Source of the DNA: Chiloscyllium plagiosum
Taxonomy: Eukaryota
DNA: 64,000 nucleotides
Assembly: GCF_004010195.1 (NCBI RefSeq)
Contig: NC_057753.1
Span: 2,067,243 to 2,131,242 of the forward strand
Reading direction: 5' to 3'
Part shown: in pieces, positions 1-58,052 of the stretch
How positions within the stretch are numbered: position 1 is the first letter of the stretch
Layout of the letters: every line of letters starts with the position of its first letter
The notes under the pieces: model-generated
Database searches by the model: none
Seen by the model: only the letters and a program-made list of their open reading frames with translations
What the model was told of the DNA's origin: nothing
Program-made: the position numbers and the translations under genes

Positions 1-407
1 AGGTATGTTGTTGATGATAAAAGAAGGTTCAAAAATAAAGTACAAGGGGATGTTTCTGAGACAGCTTAGAATGCAGGCTGTTGATATAATCATAGTTGCA
101 ACTTTCTCAGTGCAATATTTCATTTTCAGCTTCTGGCAACAAATGGCAATGTATCGATCCAATGTGAAAGCGACAGTTACCCAAACAGAAGCATCTCTGA
201 CTCCATAAATTAACATAAGACTGGCACTGCAGACTGAGGTGATAGCCAGGAACGTCATTGGGAAATAAATTCCCACAATTCGGTTTAATATCACAGCTGT
301 GATAATGACCAGGATATCCGTGACCGCCATGGATACCAGGTAATATGTGATACACTTGGAAAGACCGCACCTCTCTCGTGACAGGATGACAATCACTGAA
401 AGATTAG
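1..407 (-). CDS. GPR139/GPR142-like class A GPCR, copy 1, exon 2 (continues beyond left edge of window)
   Basis: Acceptor ttttcctag|CT at 408/407. Open frame ANLSVIVILSRERCGLSKCITYYLVSMAVTDILV...VWVTVAFTLDRYIAICC...EPSFIINNIP, with TM1 Asn, TM2 AxxD and DRY motif. About 82% aa identity (25 differences in 136 by hand count) to copy 2. Confidence 0.9.
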
Positions 408-1629
408 CTAGGAAAAAGGAGACATGATGAGTGAATACATGATGAGAGCAAATAAAGAAGTAACCAAAGAAAGACTGAAAGAGACGTCTGAGCATCCTCA
501 ACTTTCTGGAAGCAATTGCAAAGTGAGAAAAGAGTGTACATTTTGCACTAAATTATTTCTATTAAACAACATAAAAAAGGTCTCTAGTTGTCAGCATAAC
601 CAGACAATTATGTAATAGTGGATAAAGGGATAAATTCTGGTTTCCAAATTCTTTCTTTATGACTCAGTTGCAGGAAATTCATTCTGTGGTGCTTTGTGAC
701 AATTTCAAGCGAGGAACAAAAGCGAAAGTAGTCTGAAAGATTGATAAGTTGAAGAAGCAGCAAATTATATCGACCAAGCAAATGATCAAAAATAAGTGGA
801 TGATGTAGAGTATAAGAAATTTTGACGATTTTCACATTTAGGTAGATGTCCAGGAAGAGATAATTTAAAAACAAAATGCATTTGTCCTCTGAAAGAAATG
901 AAGCCTGGAATTGCATCTGATAATGATCTTAAACTAAAGCAACATTGTTTTGTGACAGAGAATAAAGTAACATAATAGCTGAAGTCCAAGTTAAGCTCTG
1001 TTGACAATGCTCTCAGTTTTGATTCCATCGATATTGGCTTCAAATCTTACTGCAAGACGTCAGTACTGACTTTGTATTGCATTGCCCAGGCTGTTGCATT
1101 CGTGCTAAAACAATAAACGGAAGATGTGAGGAATAAGACGCGAATGCAAAGACTGACTGAGCTATCAAGACGCTGCGGTTAATAGTCCATCACAAACAGC
1201 GAATAGTGTTCCATCCTCTGTCAATAGCTGTGCAGATAAAAAGTAAGTGATGCATTTGCAACGTGACAATTGTTTGACAATTGGAGGTCTCAAAACACAA
1301 TCAACGTGTAATTAAATATTCATTTTCGTGAGATGATGCACTTCCAATAATAGCGCTAAGAACACAACAGAACAGCATTTCTGACTTCTGATATCAATAA
1401 ACTAGTAGAAAAGAGGAAGAATATATTGCTCGAGGATGAACAGTGCACTAACAATATAAACAACTATTCAATTGAAAAGGAGAAATTACAGTGTTAAAGT
1501 GGAAAAAACTACATTAATTGAAAACACCTTGTTCGTAAAAATGGAACGTCATTGCCCTAAAACGGTAAGTGAAACATTCTAATCCAATGAAAGTAAAATT
1601 TTCACAATCTTGCTGAATCATAGCGTTGC

Positions 1630-1775
1630 ACTCTCGTTAGACATAGATGACTACTGGTGGTTACTGTGCCGCAGGCGAGATGAAATCTCGAAAAAGACAG
1701 TCCTTCGTGGTAACCTCAAACAGTGCGGGAATAGAAACTAAAACCTGCTATCCAGGCGACTGAGCTAACTGACTC
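1630..1775 (-). mobile_element. Decayed SINE-like element in GPCR intron
   Basis: Minus strand starts with tRNA A-box-like TAGCTCAGTCG. A homologous element sits at about 34150-34330 in the copy 2 intron. Family not identified. Confidence 0.4.
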
Positions 1776-1963
1776 CTTCAAAATTACAAAGCCCAAATAG
1801 ACAATCTCGTTGAATCTGGCCATGTTGACCGACAGATTACCAAAATGATTCTGAATACATCAGGACCGCATTATTGAAAACTGAGAGACAGGGTAAACTG
1901 AAATGCGAAAATTCAAGAAGTTATTGCAATCATGACTGTTTAATAAAAAACAGTATCCTTTAC

Positions 1964-2033
1964 CCGGAACCCCAATAGCTGCTAGGATTGGATAGTAAAT
2001 AGCAAACACGAGCCCTTTCGGCAATCCATGCAT
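1964..2033 (-). CDS. GPR139/GPR142-like GPCR, copy 1, exon 1
   Basis: ATG at 2033; MHGLPKGLVFAIYYPILAAIGVP+G, then GTAAAG donor. The phase-1 intron (1556 nt) joins in frame to exon 2. Near-identical to exon 1 of copy 2. Confidence 0.9.
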
Positions 2034-3544
2034 TTTTGTTTTAATTTTCAGTTGCATTTGGCACTTCAGTGGATGATAGTCAATTTTATACCTGATGCCA
2101 TGCTCCAGAGACACAATTAACTGCCTTGGTGTTTTGCAGTAATTGCCCACAGCGTAACAATCAGATTAGAGTTGCTTCTTTCTGGCTCATCTTCAAATTT
2201 GAGGGAGTAAAAGTTTTATTCAGAGGCACTGGCACTACCCTAAAGCGAAGTTCTTGATTTAAAAAAAAATGACAGAGGCATTTGTAAATATACACGAGTG
2301 TGCTTTACATAAAGAATCAGTATCTGTCAGTAAGATTTCTCTGAACTGCGACATTCTGTTTTACTGGAAAATGTCGCCTAATTATTATTCAGTCCAAGTG
2401 ATATCTGATTTGGTTCAAGTCTTCCTGAAACTGTAATAATTACTTTAAAGCAATCATTAGTGCACTGGTAGTGGGCTTGTCCGTTATATGTTCTGCTTCA
2501 TTCACATGTCCTGTTTCATGTTCTGTTCACAAAGTTGGTTTGCTTTGGCAATTACTTCGAGTGCACACTGGACTGCGTGCAAAATGTTACACTGTACTCC
2601 AATACGTCAAGCACATTTTGTACTATACTCATTTCCAATTCATTAGCAATATTAGAATTGACGTTTGCTGCTTTCTGCAATATATTTCGAATTGGTGAAG
2701 CCTGATCAGTCCGATTACCTTCAGTGTAAACTGATCCATTGCATTCTATTGCATTCTGTCCGTGGAGGACCATGTCACTGTCGTTGTCTTCCCTGTGGAG
2801 TCGCGTGGGGGAGGGTCGGGTTCAATCCATTCATTGAACAGACAGTGACTGGTCCATAATGGTTAAATTGAGCATCGACAGGACCATTTTGTACTCTCTG
2901 ATAACAAAATGACAGATCCACGTCCACCTCAGGGTGTATTTAGTCAGGGAAGAAATGTCGAATAAAGTTAATGTAGTTGTGAAGCAGTCCAAGTAAATTG
3001 GTTATTTGTATGGTGAAATCATCTAGTTTTTAATATTTATATCCAATTTTGAAAATTGCCACTCAGTTTTGAGCGAAGTTAGCTCCCGTGAAATCATGTT
3101 CGATTCAGCAGAGTTGCAGTCAGCATACACAGGTTCAGTTCAGCACAGTTATATTCAAAGTACTCACGCACAGTTCTGCCGAAGATCAATTGAGGACGCC
3201 GAGTTCATTGGGCTAGGTTCATGTCAGCAGTGGCCCTTCAGCTTTTGATCAAGACTGTAACACATTCGAAACCGGTGACTGCACTGAGTTGCGAAAGTTG
3301 AGGTGGAATGAGGTACAATGTCAAGGGTTGAATTTTCTGCGATTGTCCTTGTTTGCGAAATATACCTGGAAATGATCTGAGGAGACTGATTCGGAAGGAA
3401 AAGAAATCGAGGAATTGTTCCACTGCTCAAAATGATCATTATAGATCTGACAATGCTCAACTTTAATTTTTTGCGTTTTGCATAAAATCATTTTCTATCA
3501 CAGAGTTTTGAAAGTAAACTCTCACATCAACTTGAATATACTCC

Positions 3545-4970
3545 GTGACACAACCTCCATAGCTCTCTGTGGTGCACCACCCCCCACCTTTTCCTCCGCT
3601 ACATCGATGATTGTATCGGCGCTGCCTCGTGCTCCCACGAGGAGGTTGAACAATTCATCCACTTTTCCAACATCTTCCACCCCGATCTCAAATTTACCTG
3701 GACCCTCTCAGACTCCTCCCTCCCCTTCCTAGACCTCTCCATGTCTATTTCGGACGACCGAGTCAACACGGACATTTACTATAAACCGACCGAATCCCAC
3801 AGCTACCTAGACTACACCTCCTCCCACCCTGCCCCCTGTAAAAACGCCATCCCATATTCCCATATTCCCAATTCCTTCGTCTCCGCTGCATCTGCTCCCA
3901 GGAGGATCAGTTCCAATACCGAACAACCCAGATGGCCTCCTTCTTCAAAGACCGCAACTTCCTCCCGGACGTGATCGATGATGCTCTCCACCGCATCTCC
4001 TCCACTTCCCGCTCCTCCGCCCTTGAGCCCCGCCTCTCCAATCGCCACCAGGACAGAACCCCACTGGTCCTCACCTTCCACCTCACCAACCTCCATATAC
4101 ATCGTATCATCCGTCGTCATTTCCGCCACCTCCAAACGGACCCCACCACCAGGGATATATTTCCCTCCCCTCCTCTATCAGCGTTCCGAATAGACCACTC
4201 CCTTCGTGACTCCCTAGTCAGGTCCACACCCCCCACCAACCCAGCCTCTACGCCCGGCACCTTCCCCTGCAACTGCAAGAAATGCTAAACTTGCGCCCAT
4301 ACCTCCCCCCTTACTTCCCTCCAAGGCCCCAGGGGATCCTTCCATATCCGCCACAAATTCACCTGCACCTCCACACACATCATTTACTGCACCTGCTGCA
4401 CCCAATGTGGCGTCCTCTATATTGGAGAGACAGTCCGCCTACTTGCTGAATATTTCAGAGAACACCTCTGGGACACCCAGACCAACCAACCCAACCACCC
4501 CATGGCTCAACACTTCAACTCCCCCTCCCACTCCACCAAGGACATGCAGGTCTTTGGACTCCTCCATCGCCAGACCATAGCAACACGACGGCTGGAGGAA
4601 GAGCGCCTCAACCACAAGGGATGAACTCAGATTTCTCCAGTTTCCTCATTGCCCCTCCCCCACCTTGTCTCAGTCCAAACACTCGAACTCAGCACCTTCC
4701 TAACCTGCAATCTTCTTCCACCCCCACTCCGGCCTATCACCCTCACCTTAACCTCCTTCCACCTATCCCATTTCCAACGTCCCTCCCCCAAGTCCCTCCT
4801 CCCTACCTTTTATCTTAGCCTTCTTGGCACACTCTCCTCATTCCTGAAGAAGGGCTCAAGCCCGAAACGTCGATTCTTCTGCTCCTTGGATGTTGCCTGA
4901 CCTGCTGTGCTTTTCCAGCAACACATTTTCAGCTCTGCTCTCCAGCTTCTGCAGACCTCACTTTCTCCCC
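3545..4970 (+). mobile_element. Penelope-like retroelement (family 1), 5'-truncated: RT C-terminus, GIY-YIG endonuclease, pseudo-LTR
   Basis: YIDDCIG, DIYYKPTESHSYLDYTSSHP, TFPCNCKKC, IIYC..C..CG.LYIGET motifs; frameshifts and stops; 3' hammerhead motif. Confidence 0.85.
4840..4875 (+). ncRNA. Minimal type-I hammerhead ribozyme motif in Penelope pseudo-LTR
   Basis: CTGAAGA-A-GGGC-TCAA-GCCC-GAAAC-GTC: CUGANGA box, stem II, GAAA box, GUC cleavage triplet. Stem I is weak. Confidence 0.65.
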
Positions 4971-4974
4971 GTTA

Positions 4975-6780
4975 GTGAAAGCCAACACAGCATACACATA
5001 CTTCACAACCCTATTAAATTGGGTGGCAACTTTGAGGACAATGACCACAATTCCCTCGGTTCCTGTACAATGTCAGTAATTCTGCCTTTAATCCTATAAT
5101 CTTCGTTCAAAGCCGACCTTCCAAAATGAATCCGTTCACACTTTTCTAGTGGGAACTCCATCTACCACACTTCAGCCAAGTTCTGCATCCGATCAAAGTC
5201 CCATTGCAACCTACAACTATCCACCAAGCCACCAGCACGCTTACTTACCCACCCTTCCATTTCATCATCCAAACATTTATAATAATCACAAAGAGCAGAG
5301 AGCTCAGAATGGATATCTGCATGACACCACTAGTGATTGACCTCAGAGCTGAATACTGTCCAACTGCTGCCACCCTCTGTCTTCTATGCGCTAGCCGTTT
5401 CTGCAAACGGATGGACAAACGTTCCGTATCCCTTGCCTCCTTACTTTCTTAATGAGCCTACCATGGGGAACATTATCAACCGCATTCCTAATAATCATGT
5501 GCACCACATCAAAATCTATGACATCTACTACAAGCCCACCGACTCCCACAGCTACCGAGACTACACCTCCTCCCACCCATCTCCCGTAAGAGCGCCATTC
5601 CTTATTCCCAATTCCTCTGCCTCCATTGCATCTGTTCCCAGGATGACCAATTCCAACTTCGAAAATCCCAAATGGCCTCCTTCTTACAAGGTTACAATTT
5701 CTCTTTCCCGTGGTTCACAATGACTTCCAGCAACATGTCATCCACTTCCAGCACCACCGTCCAAGAAATCCACCCCTCTCAACACAACTACGTCAAAAAC
5801 ACCCCCACCCCCGGTTCGCGCATCCAAGACCGCCAACCTTCACACACATCGCATCATCCTCCATCACTTCTGCCACCTCCAAACGCACCCCACCACCAGC
5901 GATATATGTCCCTCCCCACCCCTATCAGCATTCCAGAGAGACCATTCTCTTCGCGACTCCCTCATCAGGTCGACGCCCTCCACCAGCCTATTCCCCGCTC
6001 CTAGCATATATCCCTGCCACCACCGGAAGTGAAAAACCTGCGCCTACACCACTCACCTCACCTCCGTCCACGGACGCAAAGGATACTTCTACATCCGACA
6101 GAAATTTATTTATACATTTACCAATGTTATCTACTGTATCCATTGCACGCGATGTGTTCTCCTCTACATCATGGAGACAGGATGCCTTATTGCAGATCAT
6201 TTCAGAGAACATCTCTGGGATACCCATATCAACCAACCCCCTCCGCCCTATGAGTGAACACTTCAACTCCCCCTCCCACTCCGTCAAGTACAACCAGGTC
6301 TTGGGCCTCTTCTACTGTTAAATCATTACCCCCCAAACGATTACCCAAATATTCTGGATTGTTACCTTGCAACCACACGGGATAAATATGGATTTCAACA
6401 GTCTCCTCAATTCCCCTCCCGCCACATTATCCCAGTCCCAAGCCTCCAACTCCCCAGACCTATCTCCTTCTCCCTCACCTTTATCTACTTGTCGTTTTCT
6501 CAGATACCTTCTCCCAACCCCACTCCTATTTGTCTTTCAGCCTCCCAGCCCAAAAGTCTCACTCCTGATGAAGGGCTTATGCCGGATACATCGAGTCTCC
6601 TTGTCCTTGGAAGCTGCCTGACCTGCTGTGCTTTTCCAGCATCACACTCTCGACACGACATCCAAAGCTTTCCCTTCATCAGTGTGTTTTTTCACTTCCT
6701 CAAAGAATGCAATAACGCATGACCTGCCCCTCACAAAGCCACGCTGACGATCTCTAATCAAGCTAAAGTTTTCCAGGTAA
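4975..6780 (-). mobile_element. Decayed CR1 LINE RT fragment, split by a Penelope insertion
   Basis: Minus-strand remnants such as VPHGRL and HFG; CR1 resumes after about 6660. Confidence 0.6.
5505..6655 (+). mobile_element. Penelope-like element (family 1), decayed
   Basis: DIYYKPTDSHSYRDYTSSHP and a GIY-YIG remnant; terminal CTGATGAAGGGCTTATGCCGGATACATC (mutated hammerhead). Confidence 0.8.
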
Positions 6781-6799
6781 TCATTAAAACATGATTGGG

Positions 6800-10149: not shown

Positions 10150-13100
10150 ATCATAGAATCATTGGGTCATAGAGATGTACAGCATGGAAACAGACCCTTC
10201 GGTCCAATCCGTCCATGCCGACCAGATATCCCAACCCCAACGAGTCCAATCTGCCAGCACCCGGCCCATATCCCTCCAAAACCTTGCCATTCAAATACCC
10301 ACCCAAATGCCTCTTAAATGTTACAATTGTACCAGACTCCAACGCATCCTCTGGGAGTCCATTCCATACACGTACCACCCTCTGCGTGAAAAAGGTGCCC
10401 CTTTGGTCTCTTTTATATCTTTCCCCTCTCACCCTAAACTTATGCCCTCTAGTTCTGGACTCCCTGACCCCAGAGAAAATGCTTTGTCTATTTATCCTAT
10501 CCATTTCCCTCATAATTTTGTAAACCTTTATAAGGTCACCCCCAGCCTCCGACACTCCAGGGAAAACAGCCCCAGCCTTTCCAGTCTCTCCCTGTAGCTC
10601 AGATCCTCAACCATGGCAACATCCTTGTAAATCTTTTCTGAACCTTTTCATGTTTCACAACATTTTTCCGATAGGAAGGAGACCAGAATTGCATGCAATA
10701 TTCCAACATTGGCCTAACCAATGTCTTGTACAGCCTCAACGTGACCTCCCATCTCCTGTACTCAATACTGTGACCAACAAAGGAAAGCTTACCAGGCGCC
10801 TTCTTCACTATCCTATCTACCTGCGACTCCACTTTCAAGGAGCTATGAACCTGCACGCCAAGGTCTCTTTCTTCAGCAGCACTCCCTAGGAACTTACCAT
10901 TAAGTGTATAAGTCCTGCTAAGATTTGCTTTCCCAAAATGCAGCATCTCGCATTTATCTGAATTAAACTCCGTCTGCCACTTCTCAGTCCATTGGCCCAT
11001 CTGGTCCAGATCCTGTTGTAATCTGATGTAACCTTCTTCGCTGTCTACTACACCTCCAATTTTGGTGTCATCTGCACACTTACTAACTGCACCTCTTATG
11101 CTCGCATTCAAATCATTTATGTAAATGACAAAAAGTAGAGGGTCCAGCACCCATCCTTGTGGCACTCCACTGGTCAAAGGCCTCCAGTCAAACAACCCTT
11201 CACCACCACCCTCTGTCTTCTACTTTGAGCCAGTTCTGTAACCAAATGGCTAGGTCTCCTTGTATTCGATGAGAACTAACCTTGATAATCAGTATCCCAT
11301 GGGGAACCTTGTCGTACGCCTTACTGAAGTCCATGTAGATCACAACTACTGCTCTGCCCCATCAATCTTCTTTGTTACTTCATCAAATAAATCAGTCAAA
11401 TTAGTGAGACATGATTTCCCACGCAAAAAACCATGTTGACTATCCCTAATCAGTCCTTGCCTTTTCAAATACATGTACATCCTGTCCCTCAGGATTCCCT
11501 CCAACAGATTGCCCACCACCGACGTCAGGCTCACTGGTCTATAGTTCCCTGGCTTGTTTTTACCACCCTTCTTAAACAGTGGCACCACATTTGCCAACCT
11601 CCAGTCTTCTGGCACCTCACCTGTGACTATTGATGATACAAATGTCTCAGCAAGAGGCCCAGCAATCACTTCTCTAGCTTCCCACATAGTTGTAGGTTAC
11701 ACCTGATCAGATCCTGGGAATTTATCCACCTTTAACCATTTCAGGACATCCAGCACCTCCTCCTCTGTAATTTGGACATTTTTCAAGATGTCACCATCTA
11801 TTTCCCTACAATCTATATCTTCCATATCCTTTTCCACAGTAAATTCTGATGCAATATATTCATTTAATATCTCCCCCATTTTCTGTGGCTCCACACAAAG
11901 GTCGCCTTGCTGATCTTTGAGGGGCCCTATTCTCTTTCTAGTTACCCTTTTGTCCTTAATACATTTGTTAAAACGCTTTGGATTCTCCTTAATTCTAATT
12001 GCCAAAGCTATCTCATGTCCCCGTTTTGCCCTCCTGATTTCCCTCTGAAGTATACTCCTACTTTCTTTATACTCGTCTAAGGATTCACTCGATCTATCCC
12101 GTCTATACCCGACATATGCTTCCTTCTTTTTCTTAACCAAACTCTCAATTTCGTTAGTCATCCAGCATTCCCGATACCTACCCGACTTCCCTATCACCCT
12201 GACAAGAATATACTTTCTCTGGATTCTTGTTATCTCATTTCTGAAGACTTCCCATTTCCAGCCTGTCCTTTATCTGCGAACATCTGCCTCCAATCTGCTT
12301 TCAAACGTTCTTGCCTAATACCGTCAAAATTGGCCTTTCTCCAATTTAGAACTTCAACTTTTTGATCTGGTCTATCCTCTTCCATCACTATGTTAAAACG
12401 AATAGAATTATGGTCGCTGGCCCCAAAGTGCTCCCCCACTGACAACTCAGTCACCTGCCCTGCCTTATTTCCCAAGAGTAGGTCAACCTTTGCACCTTCT
12501 CTAGTAGGTACATTCACATACTGAATCAGAAAATCGTCTTGTACACACTTAAGAAATTCCTCTCCATCTAAACTTTTAACACTATGGCAGTCCCAGTCGA
12601 CGTTTGGAAAGTTAAAGTCCCCTACCATAACTACCCTATTCTTCTTACAGATAGCTGAGATCTCCTTCCAAGTTTGTTTCTCAATTTCCCTCTGACTATT
12701 AGGAGGTCTATAATACAATCCCAATAAGGTGATTATCCTTTCTTATTTGTCAGTTCCACCTAAATAACTTCCCTGGATGTATTTCCGGGAATATCCTCCC
12801 TCAGCACAGGTGTAATGCTATCCCTTATCAAAAATGTCACTCCCCTTCCTCTCTTGCCTCCCTTTCTATCCTTCATGTAGAATTTGTATCCTGGAACATT
12901 CACCTGCCAGTCCAGCCCATCCCTGAGCCATGTTTCCGTAATTGCTATGATATCCCAGTCCCATGTTCCTAACCATGCTCTGAGTTCATCTGCCTACCCT
13001 GTTAGGCCCCTTGCATTGAAATAAATGCAGTTTAGTTTATTTGTCCTACCTTGTCCCTGCCTGCTCTGACTGTTTGACTCACTTCTGTTCTCAGCTGTAC

Positions 13101-20779: not shown

Positions 20780-23285
20780 GACTTTGTCCTCTACGTGGAG
20801 ACCATGTTACTAATGGCTCTTTTCAAGGAGCCCAGTGACAGCAAGCGATACAAAACGTTCCCAGGGAACGTGATCGATATCAAATTAGTTCAGAGAGACA
20901 GGAAGATGAGGAAAGGAATCCTGGGAGGTCTGGAGATTTTATGGGCATAGTATAGAAACAATGGCTTAAATGGATAGCCCCAAATAAATCTTACCTGATA
21001 CTCTATTTGCAGCCTCAGAATTTTTTTCTTTCCAGAGATCTTTCCAGGTTCTCTTCTGCTGTCTTTCATCCACAGAGATCACAATACACGCTCAACTCTC
21101 TTGGTCACAGACGCATATTTTGCTCTCTTCATCATATATTCATGAAGAAGCTTCCAAGTTTCTGAAAATATTGAAAAGGTGCCTTGTTGATCAAAGCGTT
21201 GTCCGTTAATGTAAATCAGGAGCAATAGTAGTATATTTGTGGAACCCCAGGAGAAACTTCTCTCCAGTCCAAAAAGATAAGTGTTAATTACGATTATTTC
21301 ACGTCAATCAGACAATTTCATATCGATATTGCTACTGTCACTGTTATTTCGTTAGCTTCAGTAATTTGCTCACCAGCCCCTCTTGGATCAAATTATTAAA
21401 ATATTTTCTCCATCTTCATTACATCAAATACATTACTGTCGTCAACATTCTGTTATCTGAACAGAAAACGACTTGTAAAATCTTCGGAGAAGGTTTCCTT
21501 GGAATAAATCTGTGCAGACTTTCCAGAATTAGAACACGTGTCCTCGTTGTTGTTAAGTGCTCACCGAACCATTTTGAACCACTTCCGACCACCAAGGTTA
21601 AACTAACTACCCTCCGGTGCTGCTGTTAACCTTAAATTGATGGCTGGTGAGGATTTAGCATTGTTGCTAGAAAGTGTTATGAACATGAAATAAGTGATTA
21701 ATTTGCAACTTTTATTGAATGACAACCGATACTGAACCCGATAATTAAACACATTTCACAAAATGCAAACTACAAATCACAAGTCTGGATCTTGAAGTGA
21801 ATTAATCATAAATATCAGTGCGTCTATTGGTATTGACGCACCGAAAGACCACCGTGGATGTTCATAATTTTGAATACTAGCAGGAAATTCTGGAGACTTT
21901 CAATGGCGTCGACAGATTCATTAGAGACAGAAATGAGTTCAAGTTTCTAGCCTCTGAGCAACTGGGTGTGATTTAAGAGGGATATGGGGCAGAGGTGTGA
22001 ATATGAACTGAAGGGATAAACTGACAAATTTTGTAAAATTCATGGGAGCAGTCAAGACACAAATCGTGTATCTGCATAAGAGGTGAACAGGTTAAAAGAT
22101 ACATTGAACAGAAAGAAAATAATCAAAAAGCAGGACACAAAACAATTTCAGAGAGAAACAACAAATCAAATAAGTCAGAAATAAATCACATAATTCTTGA
22201 ACTTCCATCCCTCGAGGCTGTCCATTGCCTCTATTACTACCCAGTTCAGAAAAAACCTATTGACTTTACCTATTACTTTTCCAGGGAAAGGGCTGGATTA
22301 AAAAAGGCAGTCGCCAGCTGGTAGGTTACAAGTTCTACTGATCCAGTACTGGATGACAGACAAATCAGAGTGCGATCTGCCATGGAGGTCTGGCATCCAC
22401 ATGTGTTCCACACCGATGACAAGGATCACAAACGCGACTGAGGCAACATATCGATCATGTGAGAAGCTAAACCGAAGACAGCCTGAGAATTTCCCCAAGC
22501 ATAGCATTCATTCACGGACTCCATCAACAAACACATAGACCTAGTTCCAATATATATGCCACTACAATGAATAACCAGAACTGGCAAGTGGAAGCAGCAA
22601 GAACAGAGCCAAATAAATTCCAGAAGACACTGTAAAGAAGAGATTTACACGAGGCTGTAAAACATTAAAGCTGTTACCTAGATAGGCAACAGAAACGTTT
22701 GCAAATCAACTTCCCAAATCAGCGAACACACCCACATCTATGGAAACCAGTACACCGTTACAAACCTCGAGACAAAACTATATTGAAACCACATTCAAAG
22801 CATTAAATGTCACTGAGAATTTTGGGGATCATTTTAATCTTCTTTTTATAGAGTTCTCATTTTCCAGCTCCACATTCTTTTTTGACGTGAGATTATATGC
22901 GACATTGGGGCGATCAGACCATACATATCTTAGTTTTCACGAGGTTTACCTTCTTGGATAACTCCTTGCCCTTTTAATGCCATGTGTTTACACGAACATG
23001 TGTTGGCGTCTCTCCACGAACTACCAATTACGACATAGAAGATAAAGCAGAAGAATTCAAGAGTACAGCTCAATCAAGATGACATGAGTAAATCCAATTA
23101 CATAGAGAGTAACGAATAGACTGTCATGCTGAACCCAAATTTCGTTTTACTATAATTTATACGTCTTAATGTGATCACTGTTTAAATAATTTAAACGTGG
23201 ATATCACTGAAAATTTCACAATTTCTTGAGCAGCTTCCTTAACTTTCTATGGCTCCCTGCACAACTAAATGAGTTAGTGCACAAA
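20780..23285. repeat. Segmental duplication of the GPCR downstream flank; paralogous to about 25260-32170
   Basis: Colinear matches, e.g. TACTGATCCAGT.CTGGATGACAGACAAATC at about 22336 and about 29793, and GATAAAGCAGAAGAATTCAAGA at 23041 and about 31942. Confidence 0.8.
23166..23281 (-). pseudogene. GPR139-like GPCR pseudogene fragment (TM7 to C-terminus), third copy
   Basis: Reads CTNSFSCAGSHRKLRKLLKKL/VKFSVISTFKLFKQ*SH* against copy 2 CINPFIYAGIQNKFREQLKKLVEFPLTLTFKLFKWCSQ*. One frameshift, one premature stop, homologous 3' flank. Confidence 0.8.
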
Positions 23286-23502: not shown

Positions 23503-24002
23503 NNNNNNNNNNNNNNNNNNNNNNNNNNNNNNNNNNNNNNNNNNNNNNNNNNNNNNNNNNNNNNNNNNNNNNNNNNNNNNNNNNNNNNNNNNNNNNNNNN
23601 NNNNNNNNNNNNNNNNNNNNNNNNNNNNNNNNNNNNNNNNNNNNNNNNNNNNNNNNNNNNNNNNNNNNNNNNNNNNNNNNNNNNNNNNNNNNNNNNNNNN
23701 NNNNNNNNNNNNNNNNNNNNNNNNNNNNNNNNNNNNNNNNNNNNNNNNNNNNNNNNNNNNNNNNNNNNNNNNNNNNNNNNNNNNNNNNNNNNNNNNNNNN
23801 NNNNNNNNNNNNNNNNNNNNNNNNNNNNNNNNNNNNNNNNNNNNNNNNNNNNNNNNNNNNNNNNNNNNNNNNNNNNNNNNNNNNNNNNNNNNNNNNNNNN
23901 NNNNNNNNNNNNNNNNNNNNNNNNNNNNNNNNNNNNNNNNNNNNNNNNNNNNNNNNNNNNNNNNNNNNNNNNNNNNNNNNNNNNNNNNNNNNNNNNNNNN
24001 NN
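23503..24002. other. Assembly gap (500 N)
   Basis: Run of N; the round length suggests a scaffolding placeholder. Confidence 1.
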
Positions 24003-26469
24003 AGACATAAATGACAGAAAATTGTAGGTATGAAACAAATTAGACAAGCATGGAAATGCATTTTAGAAGGAAGAATGAGAATGGGCAAATTGACCTAAAT
24101 GGCGCATTATGTTTGCCTTGAAGGCTATTACCTTAAAAAGGAGTACAACTTTTGAATGAATTAAATAATTTTGTTTTGTTAATAAGCTGGGTCCATAGTT
24201 GTGCTGTAGAACACAGGTTAAGGTGTGCAATTGTTTGAAATTTGCGTCATAGTTCGACTGGATGTTTATAAAGGCATTTACCAAGCTTGCCTTCAGTGTT
24301 CAGACCTTTGAATACAGGGGATGGAGTGTCGTTTTGCCCTTGTAAAGGACGTACGTGAGTCTTTTTTGGAATACTGTGTGCAGTCCTGGTTGACGTGACA
24401 TGGGAATGATATTATTTCACTGGAGATCGTTCAGAAGAGATTTATCAGGATGTTGCCTGGAATGGAGGGCTCGAGTATAATGAGAGGCTGGATATGCAGG
24501 GACCCTTCCAAATAAGCGAAGGTAGTTGAGGGGTGATATATTTTTTTACGAAACCATGAGGGGCACAGGTAAGGTAAATAAGAAATTTCTTTTCCCGAGA
24601 GGTCTATAGTCATGGAGAGGTAAGAAAAAATCAGCAAATGACTCTTTGGTTCAATTCATCTATGCGATCAGATATCCTAAATTCATTCAGCCGCATTTAC
24701 CAGCATTTGGCCCATAACCCTCTCGGCCTGTCCATCCAGATGCCTTTTTAAACATTGTAATTGTACCAGCATTTCCTCTGGCAGTAAATTACATACATGC
24801 ACTATCCCCTGCATTAAAAAAGTTGATCCTCTTGTTTCTTGTAAACCATTGCCCTGTCACCTAAGCCGCTGAGCTCTAATTTTATACTCCCGTGCCTTGG
24901 TTAAAAAAACGTTCCTTGGCAAGTTACCCTGTCAAAGCTCCTCATAATTTTATAAACTTCTATTCGGTCACCGTTAGGCCTTCAGCGTTGCAGGGAAAAT
25001 GCTCCCACACTAGTAGTCATCTCTATATAACTCAGACTTTTCAACACTTGCAACATCCTTGTAAACCTTTGCATTATTCTTTCAAGTTTAACGACATCTC
25101 TCCCAAAGCAGGGAGAGTTGAACGCAATATTCCAAAAGTAGCCTAAACAATCTGGTTGAATTGAGAAGCAGATTCAAAAACCTGAATGGAATATTCTCGA
25201 TCTTTCTTCAGATGTTTACATGCACGATCCTGTTGAAGCTCTCCACTCGTGACATTTATTCGACCTTGTTAGATCTGTAAATAAAGGGTTAGAGTTGGAC
25301 TGAAGGCTTATCACCTCAACCCGGATAAAAATGTTACTAAATCGCTCTTTGCACGGAGCAAAGCACTAGCAAGGCAACCAGAGGATATCCAAGAAAAGCG
25401 AATGAGTTCAAGTCAGTTCAGTGAGGGAGATAAATGAGGATTGAGGGCCGGTGAGATCTGGAGAAATTGGCGATGAGTGGGGATGATGTGGTAATATTGG
25501 TTTAATAAATATTCCCTGCTCCTGTATGTGCAGCTCGTGGACTTTTCTTACCCTGAGATCTGTCCACGGTGTTCTCTGCCATCTTTCCTGTACAGGGCTC
25601 ACAGAGCACGCCGAACTGTCTTGGTTACTGATATGTATCTTGTTCTCCTCATCATATTTCACAAACAATACATTTCCAATCTTTTGAAAATATTGTCCTT
25701 GGAATTAATGTCTAAGTCGTGAATGTATATCAGGGAAAACCTATGAACCCTGTCTCATAGATCGTTCCCACAAAACCGCCTATCTGTGCCACGAACTATC
25801 GAGTCCCCAATTACTACTGCTCATTCCTGACTTAAACCTCCTCCAGTGAAAAGATAACATTATTGAAGACTATTCAATGTCAATTTTGTTACTGTAACTT
25901 TAATTTAATTTACTCCAGTGATTTTCTACACAGATCTTGAATAAGCAAATTATTAAATCATTTTGTTCGTGCTTGTCACATCACTTTTACGACCATCATC
26001 AATATTTTGTGAGAGCAACAAAAACAAATGACATGGAGAATCTTGGGAATTAATTTTCCCTTAGTAAATTCATGGGATGCATTCTGAATGAACAAACAGT
26101 TATCCTAATAGCTATTGCTTATTTACTAAATTATCATTTCTAAAACGTTTCCTATTACCGAGGTTCAACTAACCAATCTTTGGTGCTGCTGTTAACCTTT
26201 GATTGGCGGTGAGTGAAGATTTTATATTATTTATCAGGAACTTTGATTTAAATGACTGAAGCGATTAAATTCCAATTTCAGTGAAATGACATTTGATAAA
26301 GAACTTGATAATTAATCAAATTTCACAAGATATAAATGCCAATCACAAATGTGATAAGTGAATTACGAATAAAGTTCAGTCAGGCTGTTAGCAGTGCCGA
26401 ATGGGAAAAAACAATATGCATGTGTAAAATTTGTAATACGCGCAGGAAGTTTTGGAGACGCTCAATGCC

Positions 26470-29255
26470 GACGATTTGCAAGTAACATTCATGCGGGTTT
26501 TCTAGAGCAGTATGTAAGTAGTGCAAGGGGAAGGAGACATTGCGGACCTGGCGTTAGGTAATGCGTCCGACCAGGTGGTTAACGTTTCAGTAGGGGATTA
26601 CTTTGGGAACAGAGATCATAATTCTATAAGTTTTAGAATACACATAGAAAAAGATGGCAGTCATCCTAAAAGAAGAGTACTAAATTTGGGAAAATCCCAT
26701 TGTGCCAAAATTCGGCAGGAGTTGGAGAAGTTGATTTGGGAGCAGCTGTTTGTTGGTAAATCCACATTTGATACCTGGGAGGCTTTTACAGAGAGTTTGA
26801 TCAGAGTGCATGACAGACATGTCCCTGTGAAAATGTGGAATATAAATGGCAAGATTAGGTAATAATGAATGACACGTGAAATTGTCAGACTAACACTTCC
26901 ATAAGGTCGTGGCGACTGAACACAGATGAAACTTTGGAAGAAAATCGGGAATGTGAGACCAATCTGAAATGAAGTATTAACAGGCTTAAAAGGAGTCATG
27001 AAATATCTTAAAGAAACATGGTTAAGAAACATGCCAAAGTCTTTAATTCATATATAAGGAGCAAAAGGGTAACTCGCGAAAAGGTTGGCCCGCTCAAGGA
27101 CAACTGAGGAATGTTATCATGAAGACAGAGAAAATGGATGCGATTCTTAATAAGTTATTTGCGCTGGTATTTACATGTCGAATGTTCAGGTTAGTAATAT
27201 GATGTTTGATTACTCTAGGTCAAGTGGGCATAAGGAGGGAGGAGGTGTAGTGTATTCTAAAAGGCATTAAGAGGTACAAGTTTCAAGTTCCGAAAGGTAT
27301 CTCTCCCAGGTTACTGAGGAAAGCGAGAGAGAAGATAGTTGGGGCCTTAAGAGCGATCTTTGCAGCTTTCTTAAACATAGGAGTTGGCCCGGAGGACTGG
27401 AGAATTGCTAACATTGTCCTCTTTGAAGAAATAACAACTGGACTAATGAGGGAATTGCTATATATGTCATATACATATATTTCAGTGAGGCATTTGATAA
27501 GGTTCCCAATTGTGGGCTGATGGAGGAAGTGAAAACGCATTTGGTCCAGCGTGTTCTAGCTAGATAGATAGAGAACTGGCTTGGCAACAGGAGACAGAGT
27601 ATTGGTGGAAAACAATGTCTGAAAATGGAGAACTGTGTCCAGTGGTGTTCCACAGAGATTGGTGCTGGGTACACTGTTGCTTGTGACATACATAAATGAT
27701 CTTAAGGAAGGTTTAGGCGGTCTGATCAGCAAGTTTGCAGATGACACTAAGATTTGTGGTGTAGCAGGTAGGAAGGGGACTGTCAGTGAATACAGAAGAA
27801 TATAGATAAATTGGAGAGTTGGGCAGATAAATAGCAGATGATTTTCAATTAAGGCAAAGGTGAGGTGATGTAATTTGGGAGATCCAATTCAAGTGAAAAG
27901 TACGGTAAATCGAAAAGCCCTGGGGAAACCTAACGTACAGAAGATCTGGATGTTCATAATCCAAAGTATGCTGAAGTTGGTAATGAACGTCGATAGAGTG
28001 GTTAAGAAGGCGTAAGGCATGCTCTCCTTCATCTCGGAGGTTTGGCAGATCATGTTACAGTTATATAAGACTTCGGTTCTGTCATATTTGGAATACTGCA
28101 TATAGGTCTTGTCGCCGCATTATGAAAAAGGCTGTGGATGCTTTGGAAAGGGTGCAGAGGATGTTTACCAGGATGTTGCGTGGGCTGGAGGGCACGGGTT
28201 ATGAAGATACGTTGAGCACATTCGGAGCATTTTCTCATTTGAAAAATGGATGTTCTTGCGGGACCGGTTTGATGTCAAAACAAACAGGGTGGATATCAGG
28301 AGAGTTTTCCCAGAGTGGGGGATTAGATTACTCGGGGTCACGAGTTCAATATGAGAGGGGAAACATTTAGAGGAGATCTGCATGGAAAAATCTTTATGCA
28401 CAGGATAGTGGGTGCCTGGAACACAATGCCAGCAGAGGTGATAGAGGCTGACATGATAGCGTAATTTAAGATATATAGAGACAGATGTATGAACGGATCT
28501 TTCCACATCCGTCAGAAATTTATCCGTGCCTCTACAGATGTCATCTACTGCATCCATTGCACCAGATGTGGTCTCCTCGACATCAGGGAGAAAGGATGCT
28601 TTCTTGCGCATCATTTCAGAGAACATCTCTGGGACACCCGCACATACCAATCCCATCGCCCCGTGGCTGAACACTTTAATTCCCCCACCCACTCCTTCAA
28701 GGGTAAGCAGGTCCTGGCCTCCTCCACGCCAAACTGCTACCACCTGACGCCTGGAGTGAGAACACCTCATATTCCGTCTTGGGTTCCTCCAACCCTACGA
28801 TATCAATGTGGATTTCAACAGCTTCCTCATTTCATCTCCCTTCACATTATCCCAGTTCCTGGTCTCCAACTTGTCACCGTCCTCCTGACCTGTCCATCAC
28901 CTTTCCCATCTATCCGCTTAATCCCCCGACCTATCACCCCCCGCCAACCCCAACCCCTCCCATTTATCTCTCAGCCCCCAGCCCACAACCCTCCTACGTG
29001 ATGAAGGGCTTATGACAGAACTGTCGATTATCCTGCTTCTAGAATGCTGCCTCAACTGCTGTGCTTATGCAGCAATACACTCACGACTCTGATCTCCGGC
29101 ATCTGCAGTCCTCACTTTCTCCCAGATACATAAATGAACAGGGATTAGAAGGATACAGATCCTTAGTAAATAGGTAACAGGTTCAGAAGAGGATCTGGAT
29201 GCGCACAGGCTTGGCGTGTCAAAGAGGCTGTAATTTTCCTTGGTCTTAGTTCTTT
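26470..29255 (+). mobile_element. 5'-truncated CR1 LINE (ORF2), inserted after the duplication
   Basis: DHNSISF, EDWRIAN, GVPQ, YINDL and SKFADDTK motifs. The paralogous site at about 21910 (caatggcgtc|gacagattc) is empty. Confidence 0.85.
28488..29125 (+). mobile_element. Penelope-like fragment (family 1) nested in the CR1 3' end
   Basis: VIYCIHCTRCGLL..., FREHL, PVAEHFN GIY-YIG motifs and a pseudo-LTR tail. Confidence 0.8.
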
Positions 29256-29824
29256 GACAGATTCGGTGGAGACAGAAATTGGCTCACGTTTCAGTCTGTG
29301 AGCAAATGAGAGGGATCCAGGGTGATACTGGATCGGAAGTGGGAAGATGACCAAAATGGAAAATCTGTGACAGGGTGGGATGCCAGAGAAATTAAGTGAA
29401 GAAAGAGTTCAAGTTGCAATATTGATGGGAGCATTCAATACAGAAAAAAATGTGACGACATGATGTGTGAGTAGAAACCTTCAATGCAGAGATAATGATA
29501 GAAAAACAAGGAAAGAAAGTCAAGGAGCAACAACAAATAAAATGGGACAGAACACAAATCACAGAATTCTTGATATTCATCTTCTGAAGGCTAAACTTTG
29601 CTTACAATTACTCCCACTTCAGTTGGGTGTTCACACACTTGCTAACTTTACTTATTCCCTCTCCAGTAGGCAGCTCAGATTATGAGGTTACTTTCCCGCT
29701 CAAACCTCTCTGGCTCCATATTGGACTGTCCAACATCTGGGCAGCACTGGGTAAACAGCCAGTAAGCTGCTAGCTTGTAGGTTCGACGTTTTTACTGATC
29801 CAGTGCTGGATGACAGACAAATCT

Positions 29825-31200
29825 GGATAGACAAGCAGGAGGCTGGAAGAATATAGCAAGCCAAGCAGCATCAGGAGGTGAAGTCAACATTTTGGGTGTA
29901 ACACTTCTTCAGAACCTAGGGTGTGTGTATGGGGAGCCACAGGTAAAGGGAATGAGGGGTGCAGGGTGGTGAATAGTGGATATGTGAACACATTTAGAGG
30001 GTATGGCCTCGCTGGTCGATGGGAGAAATGAATCCAGTTGGTGTCTACAACGAAGGGTCGATGAGAGGAATGCAAAGGGTTTGGGGCTGGGAAGGGAATC
30101 GTGTGATGGTAAGGGAAGTTATTTGCAATGTTGAGACCTCATGGCAGTCGGCCGCCCAGGCGGGAGCTAAAAAGTTGTTCCTCCAGTCTGCAGTCTGTTT
30201 CATTATGGCAATGGAGGAGGCCACGGATGGTCATGTCGGGGAAGTCGTGGTAAGGAGTGTTGAAATGCACAGTGACTGGGAGGTCAGGTCGGCCCCTGCG
30301 GGCCCGGTTAAGATGCTCAAAGAAACGTTCCCTTAGTTTGTGTTTGGTCTCCCCAATGCAGAGAAAATCACAATGGGAGCACCAGATAGAGTAAACTAGG
30401 TTGGAGGTGAGGGAGGTGAAACTGTGTCTGTCCTGGAAGAACTGTTTGGAGCCCTGGATGGAAGTGAGTGCGAGTGTGGTGTGCCAGCGAATTTTGCATC
30501 TTTTTCAGGTGCAGGGGACAATACCTGGGAATTTGGGGCGTTTCTTTTGGAAAGTGGCGCAGACCAAGGACAGGAGAAGGGAATGGTCCTTGCAGAAGGC
30601 AGAGATGGTTGGGGAGAGGTGGATGTTATTCGTGGTGTGGTACAGTTGATTTTGGCGGAGGGTTTTAAGGAAGATGCGTTAGATGCGGAGATTGGTGAGC
30701 TGGCAGTTGAGAACAAGGGTTTTCCTGTCTTTATTGCATTTATAGAGTAGATTATAGCAGTGGAACGGGGAATGGCGGGGGTGCGGTTGGGGTATTTCTC
30801 GATTGCAGGCGGTTAAAGCACATTGTTCACAATAGATGGACATTTGGGACACTTGAAAGTGCAATGTCTCCTCATCCAAGTAGATGTGGTGGAGGCACCT
30901 GAATTGGAAGAACGAGATAGAGTTCTCACATGATACTGTATGGGAGGAGGTGTAGTCCAGGTAGTTTTGAGAGCCTGTGGGTTTATCGTAAATAACCATT
31001 TGGAGACAGTCTCCGGAGATGGAATGGGAGCCGTCAAGAAAAGGGAAGGTGCAGTGAATTTGTGGATGGTGTGGAAGTTGTGGGTGAAGTCGATGAACTG
31101 CTCCAGATCGGCTTGGGTGGAGGACACTGCACAAATGCACTCATCGGTGTCACAGCTGAGGAGTTGGGGCACCGTGCCTGGGTATGGGTAACATAATTTT
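29825..31200 (-). mobile_element. Decayed Penelope-like element
   Basis: LEQFIDFTHNFH, FPFLD, YDKPTGSQNYLDYTSSH, YIGET-like remnants. Confidence 0.8.
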
Positions 31201-32053
31201 AAAGTTCTGGCATTCATTTATATCTGCATTGTTTGCCCTTCTACATATTGAGGATGAGCATGTAGGGATGTTATCCAACTCTCGTCCATTTAGATATATT
31301 AAACCTTTCATCCCTGCCTCTTTCACTTCTCCACCTACTTCAGTTGCTTGCAATTGCTGAACAGTTTCCTTCTGAAGAACGTCAGTTAAACCAGTTTGGT
31401 TTAGAATAACAATCCAGCACCTTTCATGGACAGTTTGTTTCTCTCACTATAGAACCAACGAGATTCACAAAAAGTCTGTGTTTAGGAAATTCTGTCAATG
31501 ACTTTTTTTGTTCTGTGATAAATCAGGTTAACGGGAAATTGGAAGAGTACATTTCAAGTCAGGAAAATCGATGTAAGTTTTGTGAAACAGCAGAATCACC
31601 TTCATTGTCCCTGCTTGTGGAATGAGTTTATGGGAGCAGCACAGAGCTAGGGTTGTGACGTAAGAGTTGTATTGAGGCCCAGTAGAATCCGCTTTCATGA
31701 CTTTGAGTGTCACTGAAAACTTTGGGAATTGAGATAATGTCCTATTTTATGCAAACCTCAAATTCCACAGCGTCATATTATTTTGAGGTGAAATTATATA
31801 CAAGGTTGATATGGCGGGAAAAGACATATCTTCGTTTTCACCAGGTTTTCATTCCCGATTCATTTCTTGCCTATTTATTTTCACGTGTTTGTATGATCTA
31901 ATAACAATATATGTCCAGTGACAGTTGATCACATTACAGAAGATAAAGCAGAAGAATTCAAGACCACCGCCCAATCATAATGGCATGCAAGAGTTAACAT
32001 GAAAAGCAATGGTTATTCCATAATTAGAAAGCAAACTGCATTTTACTGTGATT

Positions 32054-32973
32054 TTATTGTGAGCACCATTTAAATAATTTAAACGTTAGTGTCAGTGGAA
32101 ATTCCACCAATTTCTTCAGTTGCTCTCTGAATTTATTCTGGATCCCTGCGTAAATAAATGGGTTAATACAAGAACTCAAAAGCTGAAGCATGAATCCACC
32201 TTCTTCAAGAATAAAATTTGATTCATTGTAATTTGAACCTGCATAATAAATGACGTTCGTGAACTGAACATAGAGGAATGTCACGAAAACCAACAAGTAC
32301 GACAGTAGGAAACAGCCTGAGATGGCAAACAGTAAGACAATGGACTTCTTCCGCTTTTCCATCTCTGGGTCTCCCTGATTCTTTCCATTTCTCCACTTCT
32401 GGAGTCTCCTGCGGACTCTACTGGCCAATACAATGTGCCTGACAGTGAGAATATTGAGCACCAAAATAAGAGTGAATGGTAGACAAGGGTTTAAAATTAC
32501 TATCATCCAGTCAAATGCAATCCACCAGGGCGAGGTATAGTAAATTGATTTGCCACTGCAATACCAAGGTACATTGTTCCTGATAAAGGAAGGCTCGTAT
32601 GCAAAGTACAATGGGATGTGTCTGATACAGCTCAGAATACAGGCAGTTGTTATAACTACAGCTGCTACTTTCTCGTTGCAATATTGCATTTTCAGCTTCT
32701 GGCAACAGATTGCAATAAATCGATCAAAGGTGAAAGCGACAGTTACCCAGACAGCGGAGTCTCTGACTCCATAAAGTAACACAAGACTAGCACTACAGAC
32801 CGGGGTAATGGACAGGAATGTCATTGAGAAATAAATACCTACAATCCGGTTTAATATTACAGCTGTGATAATGACCAGGAGATCTGTCACTGCCATAGAA
32901 ACCAGATAATTTGCAATGCATTTGGAAAGGCCACACCTCTCTCGTGACAGGATAATAATCACTGATAGGTTAG
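32054..32973 (-). CDS. GPR139/GPR142-like class A GPCR, copy 2, exon 2
   Basis: Acceptor tttcatag|CT at 32974/32973; TM1 end to TM7 with DRF and NPFIY; stop at 32054-32056. Spliced protein is 329 aa. Confidence 0.93.
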
Positions 32974-34502
32974 CTATGAAATAAAGAGACACAATTAATG
33001 AATGCAAAACATTGCCAAATGTATACGTAGCCACAGAAAGACAGAAACAGACATTTTGAAATGCACAGATTTCTGGATGCCTTTCCAAAGGGAGAACATT
33101 GTTCATATTTTGCACTCAAAATATTTTTATTCAACTGCAGAAAATTATTTATAATCTTCTGCGAACTGTTAGTAGGATATAATAGTCGCAATAATGATAA
33201 ATTGTCCATTTTTACATTATTTCTTTACGATTCAGAGGCAGGAAAGAGATGCAAAAGTAGACTGAAACCTTAATAAATTGATGAATATTACATTGACTAA
33301 GGAAATGACCATAAATAAGCACATGAGATTGAATGTAAAGAAATCCTAAGAATTTCATATTGACACAGATATCCAAGAAGAAATCACGTATTGGCAAAAT
33401 AAAACTCACCTCAAAGTGGAAAGAAACCTAGCATTGCATTTCATAACGATCTTAAGCTAATATATCATTCTTTCAGGACAGACAAAAAGGACCAAATTAG
33501 ACGAACTCCACATAGAGTTTTGTTGGCAATGCTTTTTGCTTTGAGAGAAATGATTTTGACTTCGAATTCGACGGCAAGACTTCAAGACTCACTGCATATT
33601 GCACTGCCCAGGGGATTGCAATTGTGCCAAACCAAAAAAAAAAGTTATGACGTATGGTATTCGAATGGAAAATCGAACAGAACTATCAAGATACTCCTGC
33701 TAATATTGCATCACAAGCAACAAGCAGTGCACGATGGCAAAGCAATCAGTGCAAAGTGCTACAACTGAGCGACCTCAATGGCTGTGCAGATTTTAAAAAT
33801 TGAAAACTTTGCAGCGTGTTAATTGATTGGTAGTTGAAACACAATCGAAGTGCAATTAAATCATCATCACATTTGAATAATTCGTGCACAGTCACACAAT
33901 GATATAAAATTTCTGACTTCTGATGATCACAATAAACCATAAAATGAGGTGGGGAAATGATACTAGTCAAGGCAATATGGTGGACTGACACTGTGATGAA
34001 GCTGTGCAATTGAAAAGAAATGACAGTGTTAAAGTGGAGAAAATGGGATACAAATTCATTGAAAACATTTTGTTCGTAAAGTAGAAGTTGGATGTCCTTC
34101 AAAGGAAGGGTGAGACATTAAGGTACAGTTGTCACAGTCTTACTGGACCATAGGCCGTTGTCTCATTAGAGAGAGACTACTCGTATTGTTTAATCAAAGA
34201 GCTCTATGCCTCAGGCGACGTGAGAGATTGAGAAGGATAGTGCTTCATTGCCAGCTCAAACAGGATAGGAATTTAACCCAAACTGCCCCAAATGCCTGCT
34301 GTACAACCAACTGAACTAACTAACTCCGTCTAAATTGTGTGCCTCAATAGAGAATCCCACTGAATTTGCTGGACTGAATAGCAAAACGCCTGTAGGTTCA
34401 TTGCGATTTTGGTATTAATAATAAAAAGGAGTAAACTCATATGAGAAAATTAAAGCAGCTAATGAAATTGTTCCTACTTAATAACTAAAGAATATCCTTT
34501 AC

Positions 34503-34572
34503 CTGGAACGCCAATGGCTGCTAGGATTGGATAGTAAATAGAAAACACGAGCCCACTTGGTAATCCGTGCAT
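34503..34572 (-). CDS. GPR139/GPR142-like GPCR, copy 2, exon 1
   Basis: ATG at 34572; MHGLPSGLVFSIYYPILAAIGVP+G|GTAAAG. Phase-1 intron of 1529 nt, in frame with exon 2. Confidence 0.9.
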
Positions 34573-58013: not shown

Positions 58014-58052
58014 CGTTTTTGTATCAGTACCAAGGATACATGTACCATGGTG
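58014..58052 (-). promoter_or_regulatory. 23-bp-spacer recombination signal sequence (RSS)
   Basis: Heptamer CACCATG (58052-58046), 23-nt spacer, nonamer ACAAAAACG (58022-58014), immediately after YYCAAVK. Confidence 0.9.

Follow-up and report, generated by a model that had tools for sequence, protein, structure and literature searches.

A GPR139-related receptor pair of Chiloscyllium plagiosum as part of a very large, probably ligand-diversified elasmobranch family

Introduction

A stretch of 64,000 nucleotides of the Chiloscyllium plagiosum genome (NCBI RefSeq assembly GCF_004010195.1, contig NC_057753.1, positions 2,067,243 to 2,131,242; hereafter the window) carries two similar G-protein coupled receptor (GPCR) genes, named here A and B, and the relic of a third copy. 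What are such genes for: are they duplicates of a known receptor, members of a repertoire that reads many ligands, or the residue of duplication in a repeat-rich region? A preliminary description of the window had taken them for GPR139/GPR142-like receptors in a lineage-expanded repertoire. The question bears on shark biology. Sharks are known for their chemical sense. Papers on their genomes, however, portray cartilaginous fishes as having few GPCRs and olfactory receptors (PMC8455134, PMC11979771; papers cited by PMC number are drawn on here in part). One of them speaks of a 'relative paucity' of GPCRs (PMC8455134), and only 2 odorant receptor (OR) and 6 OR-like genes are given for the catshark (PMC11979771).

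Results

Structure of genes A and B

Gene B lies on the minus strand and is complete. Coding exon 1 (34503..34572, 70 nt) is followed by a phase-1 GT-AG intron of 1,529 nt inside transmembrane helix 1 (TM1; 32974..34502) and by exon 2 (32054..32973), which runs from TM1 to helix 8 and closes with a TAA stop. The spliced frame of 329 aa is free of stops, and AATAAA signals mark the 3' end at 32058 and 31879. Gene A, on the same strand, consists of coding exon 1 (1964..2033; 70 nt, or 23 codons and one base), a phase-1 GT-AG intron of 1,556 nt inside TM1 (408..1963) and exon 2 (1..407), which extends from TM1 to extracellular loop 2 (ECL2) and is truncated by the window edge. Its frame stays open for 159 codons and then ends at window base 1. 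Of the 'two apparently intact paralogues' described earlier, B is therefore complete and A is intact only as far as the window shows. The intron lies between GVP and AN of TM1 in both genes, as the preliminary description had it, and a very short N-terminus of about ten residues precedes TM1. GPR139 may have its intron at the equivalent position of TM1, between GLP and AN.

Pfam assigns both second exons to 7tm_1 (gene A, E 3.4e-11; gene B, E 1.2e-19, 71 bits against a cut-off of 30.5), which identifies gene B as a class A GPCR, and the motifs DRF and NPFIY are present in it. The predicted model of a whale-shark homologue (P0002) has seven long helices and a helix 8, with a predicted local distance difference test (pLDDT) score of 87. 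In Pfam at E 0.01 gene B matched only 7tm_1 and no OR, TAAR, V1R/ORA, T2R or Srw profile, and no OR, TAAR, V1R/ORA or T2R receptor is found among the listed top solved matches.

The exon 2 proteins of A and B share 111 of 136 residues (81.6%), in agreement with the 82% noted before; with exon 1 included, 132 of 159 residues (83%) are identical. Nucleotide identity is 87% in exon 1 and 83% in exon 2 versus 72.5% in the intron, so that the introns are the more diverged, as had been noted. With a nonsynonymous divergence (dN) of 0.09 and a synonymous divergence (dS) of 0.56, dN/dS is 0.16. Genes A and B are real genes under purifying selection.

Size and distribution of the family

A protein search with exon 2 of gene B yielded 1,942 proteins at E <=1e-5 among 3,216 candidates. 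Of the best 120 of these 1,942 matches, 119 belong to named sharks or rays, and the remaining one has no name. The horn shark contributes 77 of them, the whale shark 11, the sharpnose sevengill 10, the sawshark 8 and other species 13, counted as 90%-identity clusters, so that near-identical copies are merged and mis-annotated isoforms might add a few. The clusters are spread over at least seven horn shark scaffolds. Clustering at 50% identity leaves 105 representatives at E 1e-30 or better, and nine of ten divergent members looked up are elasmobranch, the tenth being unnamed. There is no chimaera among the named matches, although no search aimed at chimaera was made. Most members bear the database name 'probable G-protein coupled receptor 139' and some 'sex peptide receptor-like'; a short N-terminus and two exons are further traits of the family. 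These counts strongly support the lineage-expanded repertoire proposed in the preliminary description, and we are highly confident that A and B belong to a very large elasmobranch family that would have expanded from a GPR139-related orphan lineage.

The nearest matches of gene B come from whale and zebra shark (81-82%), and the two best whale-shark matches have consecutive accessions on one 11.7-Mb record. Since A and B are as distant from each other (82%) as from these matches (82-86%), the A/B duplication is old. Scans of metagenomes for paralogue DNA gave 0 matches with an exon-1 pattern and, elsewhere, 110 pattern hits, none of them confirmed.

The genes are on record as database auto-annotations, and a description of the elasmobranch expansion was not found in the literature searched, most subscription journals and some supplements lying outside it. 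The covered parts of four shark genome papers and of their searchable supplements do not mention it.

Binding pocket and G-protein face

Twenty-three pocket sites were mapped by hand from GPR139 (PMC8807744, PMC5430874) and carried over by generic numbering through a profile alignment. They were compared with the other outer-TM sites, using 5000 permutations, and 28 G-protein-facing sites were scored as well. In 20 amphibian orthologues, the entropy of the pocket is 0.04 bits versus 0.41 bits at other outer-TM sites. Among divergent shark members (63, after 6 of 69 were dropped for low coverage) it is 2.70 versus 2.04 bits, a value reached in none of the 5000 permutations, and in the 120 close members 1.33 versus 1.09 bits (p 0.07). 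Entropy of the G-protein face is 0.81 bits in the divergent and 0.36 bits in the close members, and the intracellular motifs are near-invariant across the family.

Pairs of mutually nearest proteins, which are few and related and therefore non-independent, separate orthologues from paralogues. Ten cross-species pairs differ at 12/230 pocket sites (5.2%) versus 74/590 outer-TM sites (12.5%), whereas 18 same-species pairs differ at 52/414 (12.6%) versus 129/1062 (12.1%); the better retention of the pocket across species is significant by Fisher's test (p 0.009). For more distant paralogues, the ratio of pocket to outer-TM change rises to 1.2-1.4. A pocket that orthologues retain and paralogues vary speaks for specialisation on a set of ligands and against drift; such pockets are typical of odorant receptors. 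It is likely, judged from these sequences, that the family is a ligand-diversified repertoire.

The proline of TM6 is kept in the amphibian gene and lost in most shark members. In the clade near to A and B, 6x48 is mostly Tyr, Pro is absent at 6.50 and the NPxxY proline is canonical (88%), whereas divergent members have Trp (94%) at 6x48 and NT (81%) for the NP of NPxxY. As far as motifs can tell, activation motifs are rewired within the family (TM6/TM7 of gene B, 32057-32973).

Placement relative to GPR139 and GPR142

GPR139 is the best solved match of gene B, weakly so (28.9 bits, E 5e-6), and a 66-sequence family profile scores GPR139 at 98.9 bits and the next solved receptor at 77.4. The next solved relatives are the peptide receptors NTSR1, PrRP, CCK, TRH and ghrelin. 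A fold search was non-discriminating and ranked GPR139 second, among peptide receptors. However, the whale-shark homologue P0002 has 21% identity with human GPR139, compared with 70% between human GPR139 and its zebrafish orthologue (PMC7318219). Trp and Phe are bound in GPR139 through F3x33, H5x43, W6x48, R6x51 and N7x38 (PMC5430874); the corresponding residues of gene B are Y91, I181, Y249, V252 and F284, so that 0/5 are identical. Gene B also has the TM3-ECL2 cysteines C83 and C162, which are kept in 98-100% of the 120 close members, whereas GPR139 is without the TM3-ECL2 disulfide (PMC5430874). The earlier label 'GPR139/GPR142-like' thus holds in that GPR139 is the nearest solved receptor, not in the sense of copies of these genes, and the aromatic amino-acid sensing that came with the label does not carry over.

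Closer relatives are found among auto-named 'GPR139' proteins of coelacanth, salamanders, teleosts and one frog; three further relatives, including P0257, which has a UniParc number as its sole name, are presumably lancelet proteins. GPR139 is the top match of both the coelacanth and the newt protein, yet at 70 and 53 bits, set against the 70% identity of the zebrafish orthologue, they are not true GPR139 orthologues. A search with the newt protein gave 25 hits, namely 20 amphibian clusters (one per named species), 1 sturgeon and 4 elasmobranch, with no amniote or teleost among the 25. The amphibian/sturgeon orphan receptor (P0239, P0285-P0304), also auto-named GPR139, is single-copy and has an almost invariant pocket.

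In a quick tree of 97 rows, which contains neither fragments <290 aa nor true GPR139 and GPR142 and which has support from the Shimodaira-Hasegawa-like approximate likelihood ratio test (SH-aLRT) only, a shark clade of 79 rows (96) is sister to the amphibian/sturgeon genes (100), and A and B join genes of whale and zebra shark (99). This shark and amphibian/sturgeon clade does not include the coelacanth and teleost rows, and invertebrate rows lie outside the chordate clade. About 37 of the rows bear no species name. Sequence comparison places A and B in a separate GPR139-related sub-lineage and not among GPR139/GPR142 orthologues.

Expression and upstream blocks

A search of sequencing runs for RNA carrying gene B listed none, a result that speaks neither for nor against its expression. 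When reads of four runs were aligned at 82% likeness to 31300-35150, the runs contributed 24, 0, 25 and 16 records, each of them <90% alike and hence none from gene B; the run with 0 reads (X6) is no test of expression. The records lie mostly on conserved coding stretches, and a repeat in the intron accounts for some. Translated by hand, two loose ends of the alignments continue family-like and in frame: one in intracellular loop 3 (ICL3), carried by 6 reads of a poly(A) single-cell run as well as by a contig of a second species label, the other in TM4, in two contig runs whose RNA status is guessed. The translation of a third loose end is not family-like. As family sequence continues in frame beyond the loose ends, at least one paralogue is transcribed. 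Its short motifs have no full match among the proteins compared. In run X5, seven reads of a paralogue depart from the family frame behind TM3, at a loose end at 32695, and enter unrelated sequence; alternative splice, fusion or chimera are possible.

Upstream of gene A, a block at 2084..2124 (minus strand) contains TAATTG, an O/E(EBF)-like site with one mismatch and TATAAAA 57 bp before the ATG. In the block of gene B (34623..34663, minus strand), TAATTG is accompanied by an exact match to YYYCARRRR (O/E-like) and by a TATA-like box that is weakened. We take these putative sites to be homeodomain-like and O/E(EBF)-like. The blocks agree at 34/41 bases, compared with an intron mean of 25/41, and 0.8% of intron windows reach 34/41. 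A layout of homeodomain, O/E and TATA sites resembles OR promoters. The pattern has 3 hits in the window versus 0.93 expected. A 26-bp satellite does not precede either gene: the 11 tandem-repeat (TRF) rows include no array of period 26, and upstream of A and B the best self-match at this period is about 0.3. The TATA box reads TAAAAA in gene B (34623-34630) and TATAAAA in gene A, an alteration which might weaken expression of gene B.

Third copy and remainder of the window

The third copy is a 3' stub on the minus strand (22784..23285; nhmmer E 5.5e-45) that retains roughly the last 40 codons, in degraded form, together with 3' flank. It aligns at 72% over 501 columns and has stops in all three frames and a 1-base deletion. 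The 'one pseudogene' noted earlier accordingly exists as a decayed copy, but as a stub of ~500 bp rather than a full pseudogene; its shared orientation with A and B is as noted then. An exon 1 or promoter relic was looked for upstream of the stub and not found. Part of the copy may be hidden, because an assembly gap of 500 N (23503-24002) sits ~220 bp upstream of the stub. A direct duplication of ~0.9 kb (20983-21912 and 25504-26474, 70% identity) flanks stub and gap. A 121-protein family profile run on the window found no coding copy beyond A and B, and the array in the window is two genes and one relic.

Pfam, applied at curated cut-offs to 104 other open reading frames, found only transposon domains and one antigen-receptor V segment, which is considered below. 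Transposon debris and non-coding duplications make up the remainder of the window. The debris consists of long interspersed element (LINE), Penelope-like and long terminal repeat (LTR) fragments; the presumed classes are CR1/LINE, LTR-type reverse transcriptase/RNase H and Penelope-like for those at 10150-13560, 14430-15460, 17800-18770, 46180-46800, 3500-6650 and 28050-31200. An old direct duplication of ~8 kb (37000-45200 and 47100-54400; 67-83% identity) has no recognised coding content. Further repeats are an inverted pair at 17797-18740, near-identical at 96%, and a tandem duplicate of 219 bp at 55143-55581.

Discussion

Taken together, our analysis suggests that tandem duplication and loss in elasmobranchs may have built a receptor repertoire from a lineage that is single-copy in amphibians and sturgeon. 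Each copy would keep the common intracellular face and thus probably one G-protein pathway, possibly Gq/11, the coupling reported for GPR139 (PMC8807744). The pocket of each copy would specialise on a different ligand, with a different ligand set per subfamily. The most likely use would be the sensing of outside chemicals in nose, taste bud, gill or skin epithelia, where the family might stand in for the odorant receptors that sharks nearly lack. We give such a chemosensory repertoire, its tissue and ligands being conjectural, slightly less than an even chance. More tentative is a wider proposal, for which we see perhaps one chance in three: that these receptors are one more, hitherto unrecognised chemoreceptor family of vertebrates and provide the main odour/taste repertoire of class A in sharks and rays, derived from a single-copy GPR139-related receptor of peptide type, having an OR-like homeodomain and O/E promoter and lying partly on the antigen-receptor chromosome, as mammalian OR clusters do.

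Several observations weigh against a sensory role. The excess of pocket entropy is non-significant in the 120 close members, the pocket sites were chosen by hand, the mutual-nearest pairs are few, and A and B differ at only 1/10 visible pocket sites. Gene B has 0 reads at >=90% identity in 4/4 runs, and the expression observed comes from runs of unspecified tissue. What appears to be the same paralogue under two species labels fits a common tissue as well as it fits the nose. The upstream pattern was picked after viewing the sequence and loosened to fit gene A, and at least 3 hits arise by chance in 5/100 shuffles; EBF, moreover, is active in B cells too. The neighbouring V segment fits an immune setting. 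A catshark olfactory top-50 list, in the part of the source covered, is without any GPCR, which does not discriminate (PMC11979771).

The rival that survives best is an immune or barrier role, in which the receptors would detect microbial or damage peptides on leukocytes, mast-like cells or nociceptors, in the manner of MRGPR or formyl-peptide receptors. The pocket pattern fits it equally well, paralogue reads occur in 3/4 runs of unspecified tissue, and cartilaginous fish are reported to be without MAS1 and relatives (PMC8455134). The locus itself offers an intact V segment of T-cell-receptor (TCR) type ~23.5 kb from gene B (58014..58838, minus strand), with leader (58838-58751), V exon (58360-58053; Pfam V-set E 5.5e-16), an in-frame leader-V splice and a heptamer-23-nonamer recombination signal with 23-bp spacer (58052-58014). 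Its leader is unusually long (29 codons) and its heptamer non-consensus. Among Atlas clusters, those named TCR alpha/delta and those named TCR gamma tie at 0.95; the segment is probably of alpha/delta type, given framework motifs that we take to be characteristic of it. A homologue search with the segment gave no candidate and no close protein relative, and a PDB search mostly antibody fragments. No D, J or C segment was seen in the 64-kb window. As the V segment faces the receptor genes, these would lie between it and any D/J further left, and its proximity suggests that the region may be a shark antigen-receptor region.

V exons are scattered in both orientations through the antigen-receptor complex (Flajnik et al. 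2025, PMC12227049), which in the catshark lies on chromosome 17 and reaches 133.54 Mb (table S1 of the same paper). Two catshark members of the near clade are on one record of 133,841,611 bp and, to judge from record length only, probably share that chromosome. However, members are found on many other chromosomes as well (catshark records of 226, 134 and 98 Mb), and the antigen-receptor paper and its supplements, in the parts covered, do not mention these receptor genes (PMC12227049). Linkage, besides, does not amount to function: in mammals, the TCR alpha/delta locus is flanked by OR clusters, which are not immune genes. We regard an immune role as unlikely, at about one chance in four.

Less probable, at little better than one chance in ten, are diversified neuropeptide or hormone receptors with endogenous ligands, in a role near the ancestral one, that of the single-copy amphibian gene. 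The peptide receptors that follow GPR139 among solved relatives, the conserved TM3-ECL2 disulfide and the frozen pocket of the amphibian orthologue, as expected for one endogenous ligand, agree with such a role. However, dozens to hundreds of pockets would need a matching ligand family, of which none is known, and sharks no longer have the basic 6x51 residue found in the amphibian and coelacanth genes.

Slightly more doubtful still is passive copy-number drift, with redundant copies under relaxed constraint in repeat-rich, duplication-prone regions. It would suit a window full of LINE, Penelope-like and LTR fragments and of old duplicated blocks, the decayed stub, and the TM6 proline lost in most members. 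It is already weakened by a dN/dS of 0.16 at a dS of 0.56, by near-invariant intracellular motifs and by orthologue pairs across shark orders, which hold the pocket better than neighbouring sites. Straight GPR139/GPR142 duplicates still sensing L-Trp and L-Phe are very improbable, since the 21% identity, the 0/5 shared pocket residues and the disulfide absent from GPR139 outweigh the best solved match and the database names.

Whatever the tissue, a family of which one shark has at least 77 distinct members, and which bears the specialised-pocket signature, contradicts the view that cartilaginous fishes are short of GPCRs. If the ligand-diversified family is sensory, it would explain how sharks smell with so few ORs and add an independent origin of vertebrate chemoreceptors, and true sensory expression would make this a major result. 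Should it instead be immune, sharks may have in it the counterpart of MRGPR-type sensors that has been missing. The ancestral ligand can be approached in the laboratory through the Xenopus orthologue, which is single-copy and has a frozen pocket.

Comparison with known receptor systems

The family resembles the OR, TAAR, V1R/ORA, V2R, T2R and MRGPR/FPR families in being large, clustered and subject to birth and death. A short N-terminus, an intracellular face that is conserved and a pocket that orthologues keep but paralogues vary are further shared features, the general repertoire pattern of vertebrate chemoreceptor and MRGPR/FPR families. It differs from them in its position on another class A branch, in a coding intron within TM1 and in having no match to their Pfam profiles (E 0.01).

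GPR139 and GPR142 are human orphan receptors activated by L-Trp and L-Phe. GPR139 is the best solved match of the family by sequence and by profile and, like its members, a two-exon gene (PMC7318219); most divergent members are without proline at 7.50, a trait also of the GPR139 alignment. The family's ~21% identity, 0/5 key pocket residues, TM3-ECL2 disulfide, massively multi-copy state and mostly lost TM6 proline set it apart. Non-mammalian orphans beside GPR139/142 have been described in coelacanth, gar and fishes, namely GPR210A/B, related bony-fish orphans named by Rinne et al. 2019 (PMC6504862), and 'Orphan 139-like'/NMOGPR (PMC5207463). The coelacanth and teleost proteins P0234, P0241 and P0267 are probably of this GPR210/139-like kind, their identifiers being unmatched. 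In the part of Rinne et al. covered, the word 'shark' occurs 0 times and no amphibian set or expansion is listed (PMC6504862).

Invertebrate expansions of Srw, FMRFamide and sex-peptide-receptor-like receptors offer a further parallel. Neighbouring Atlas clusters carry the Srw Pfam domain in 17-74% of their members, and some shark members are auto-named 'sex peptide receptor-like'. These expansions differ, however, in lying outside the chordate clade of the tree, and gene B has no Srw hit. Any chemosensory use of the shark family would be a recruitment parallel to the invertebrate Srw-type expansions.

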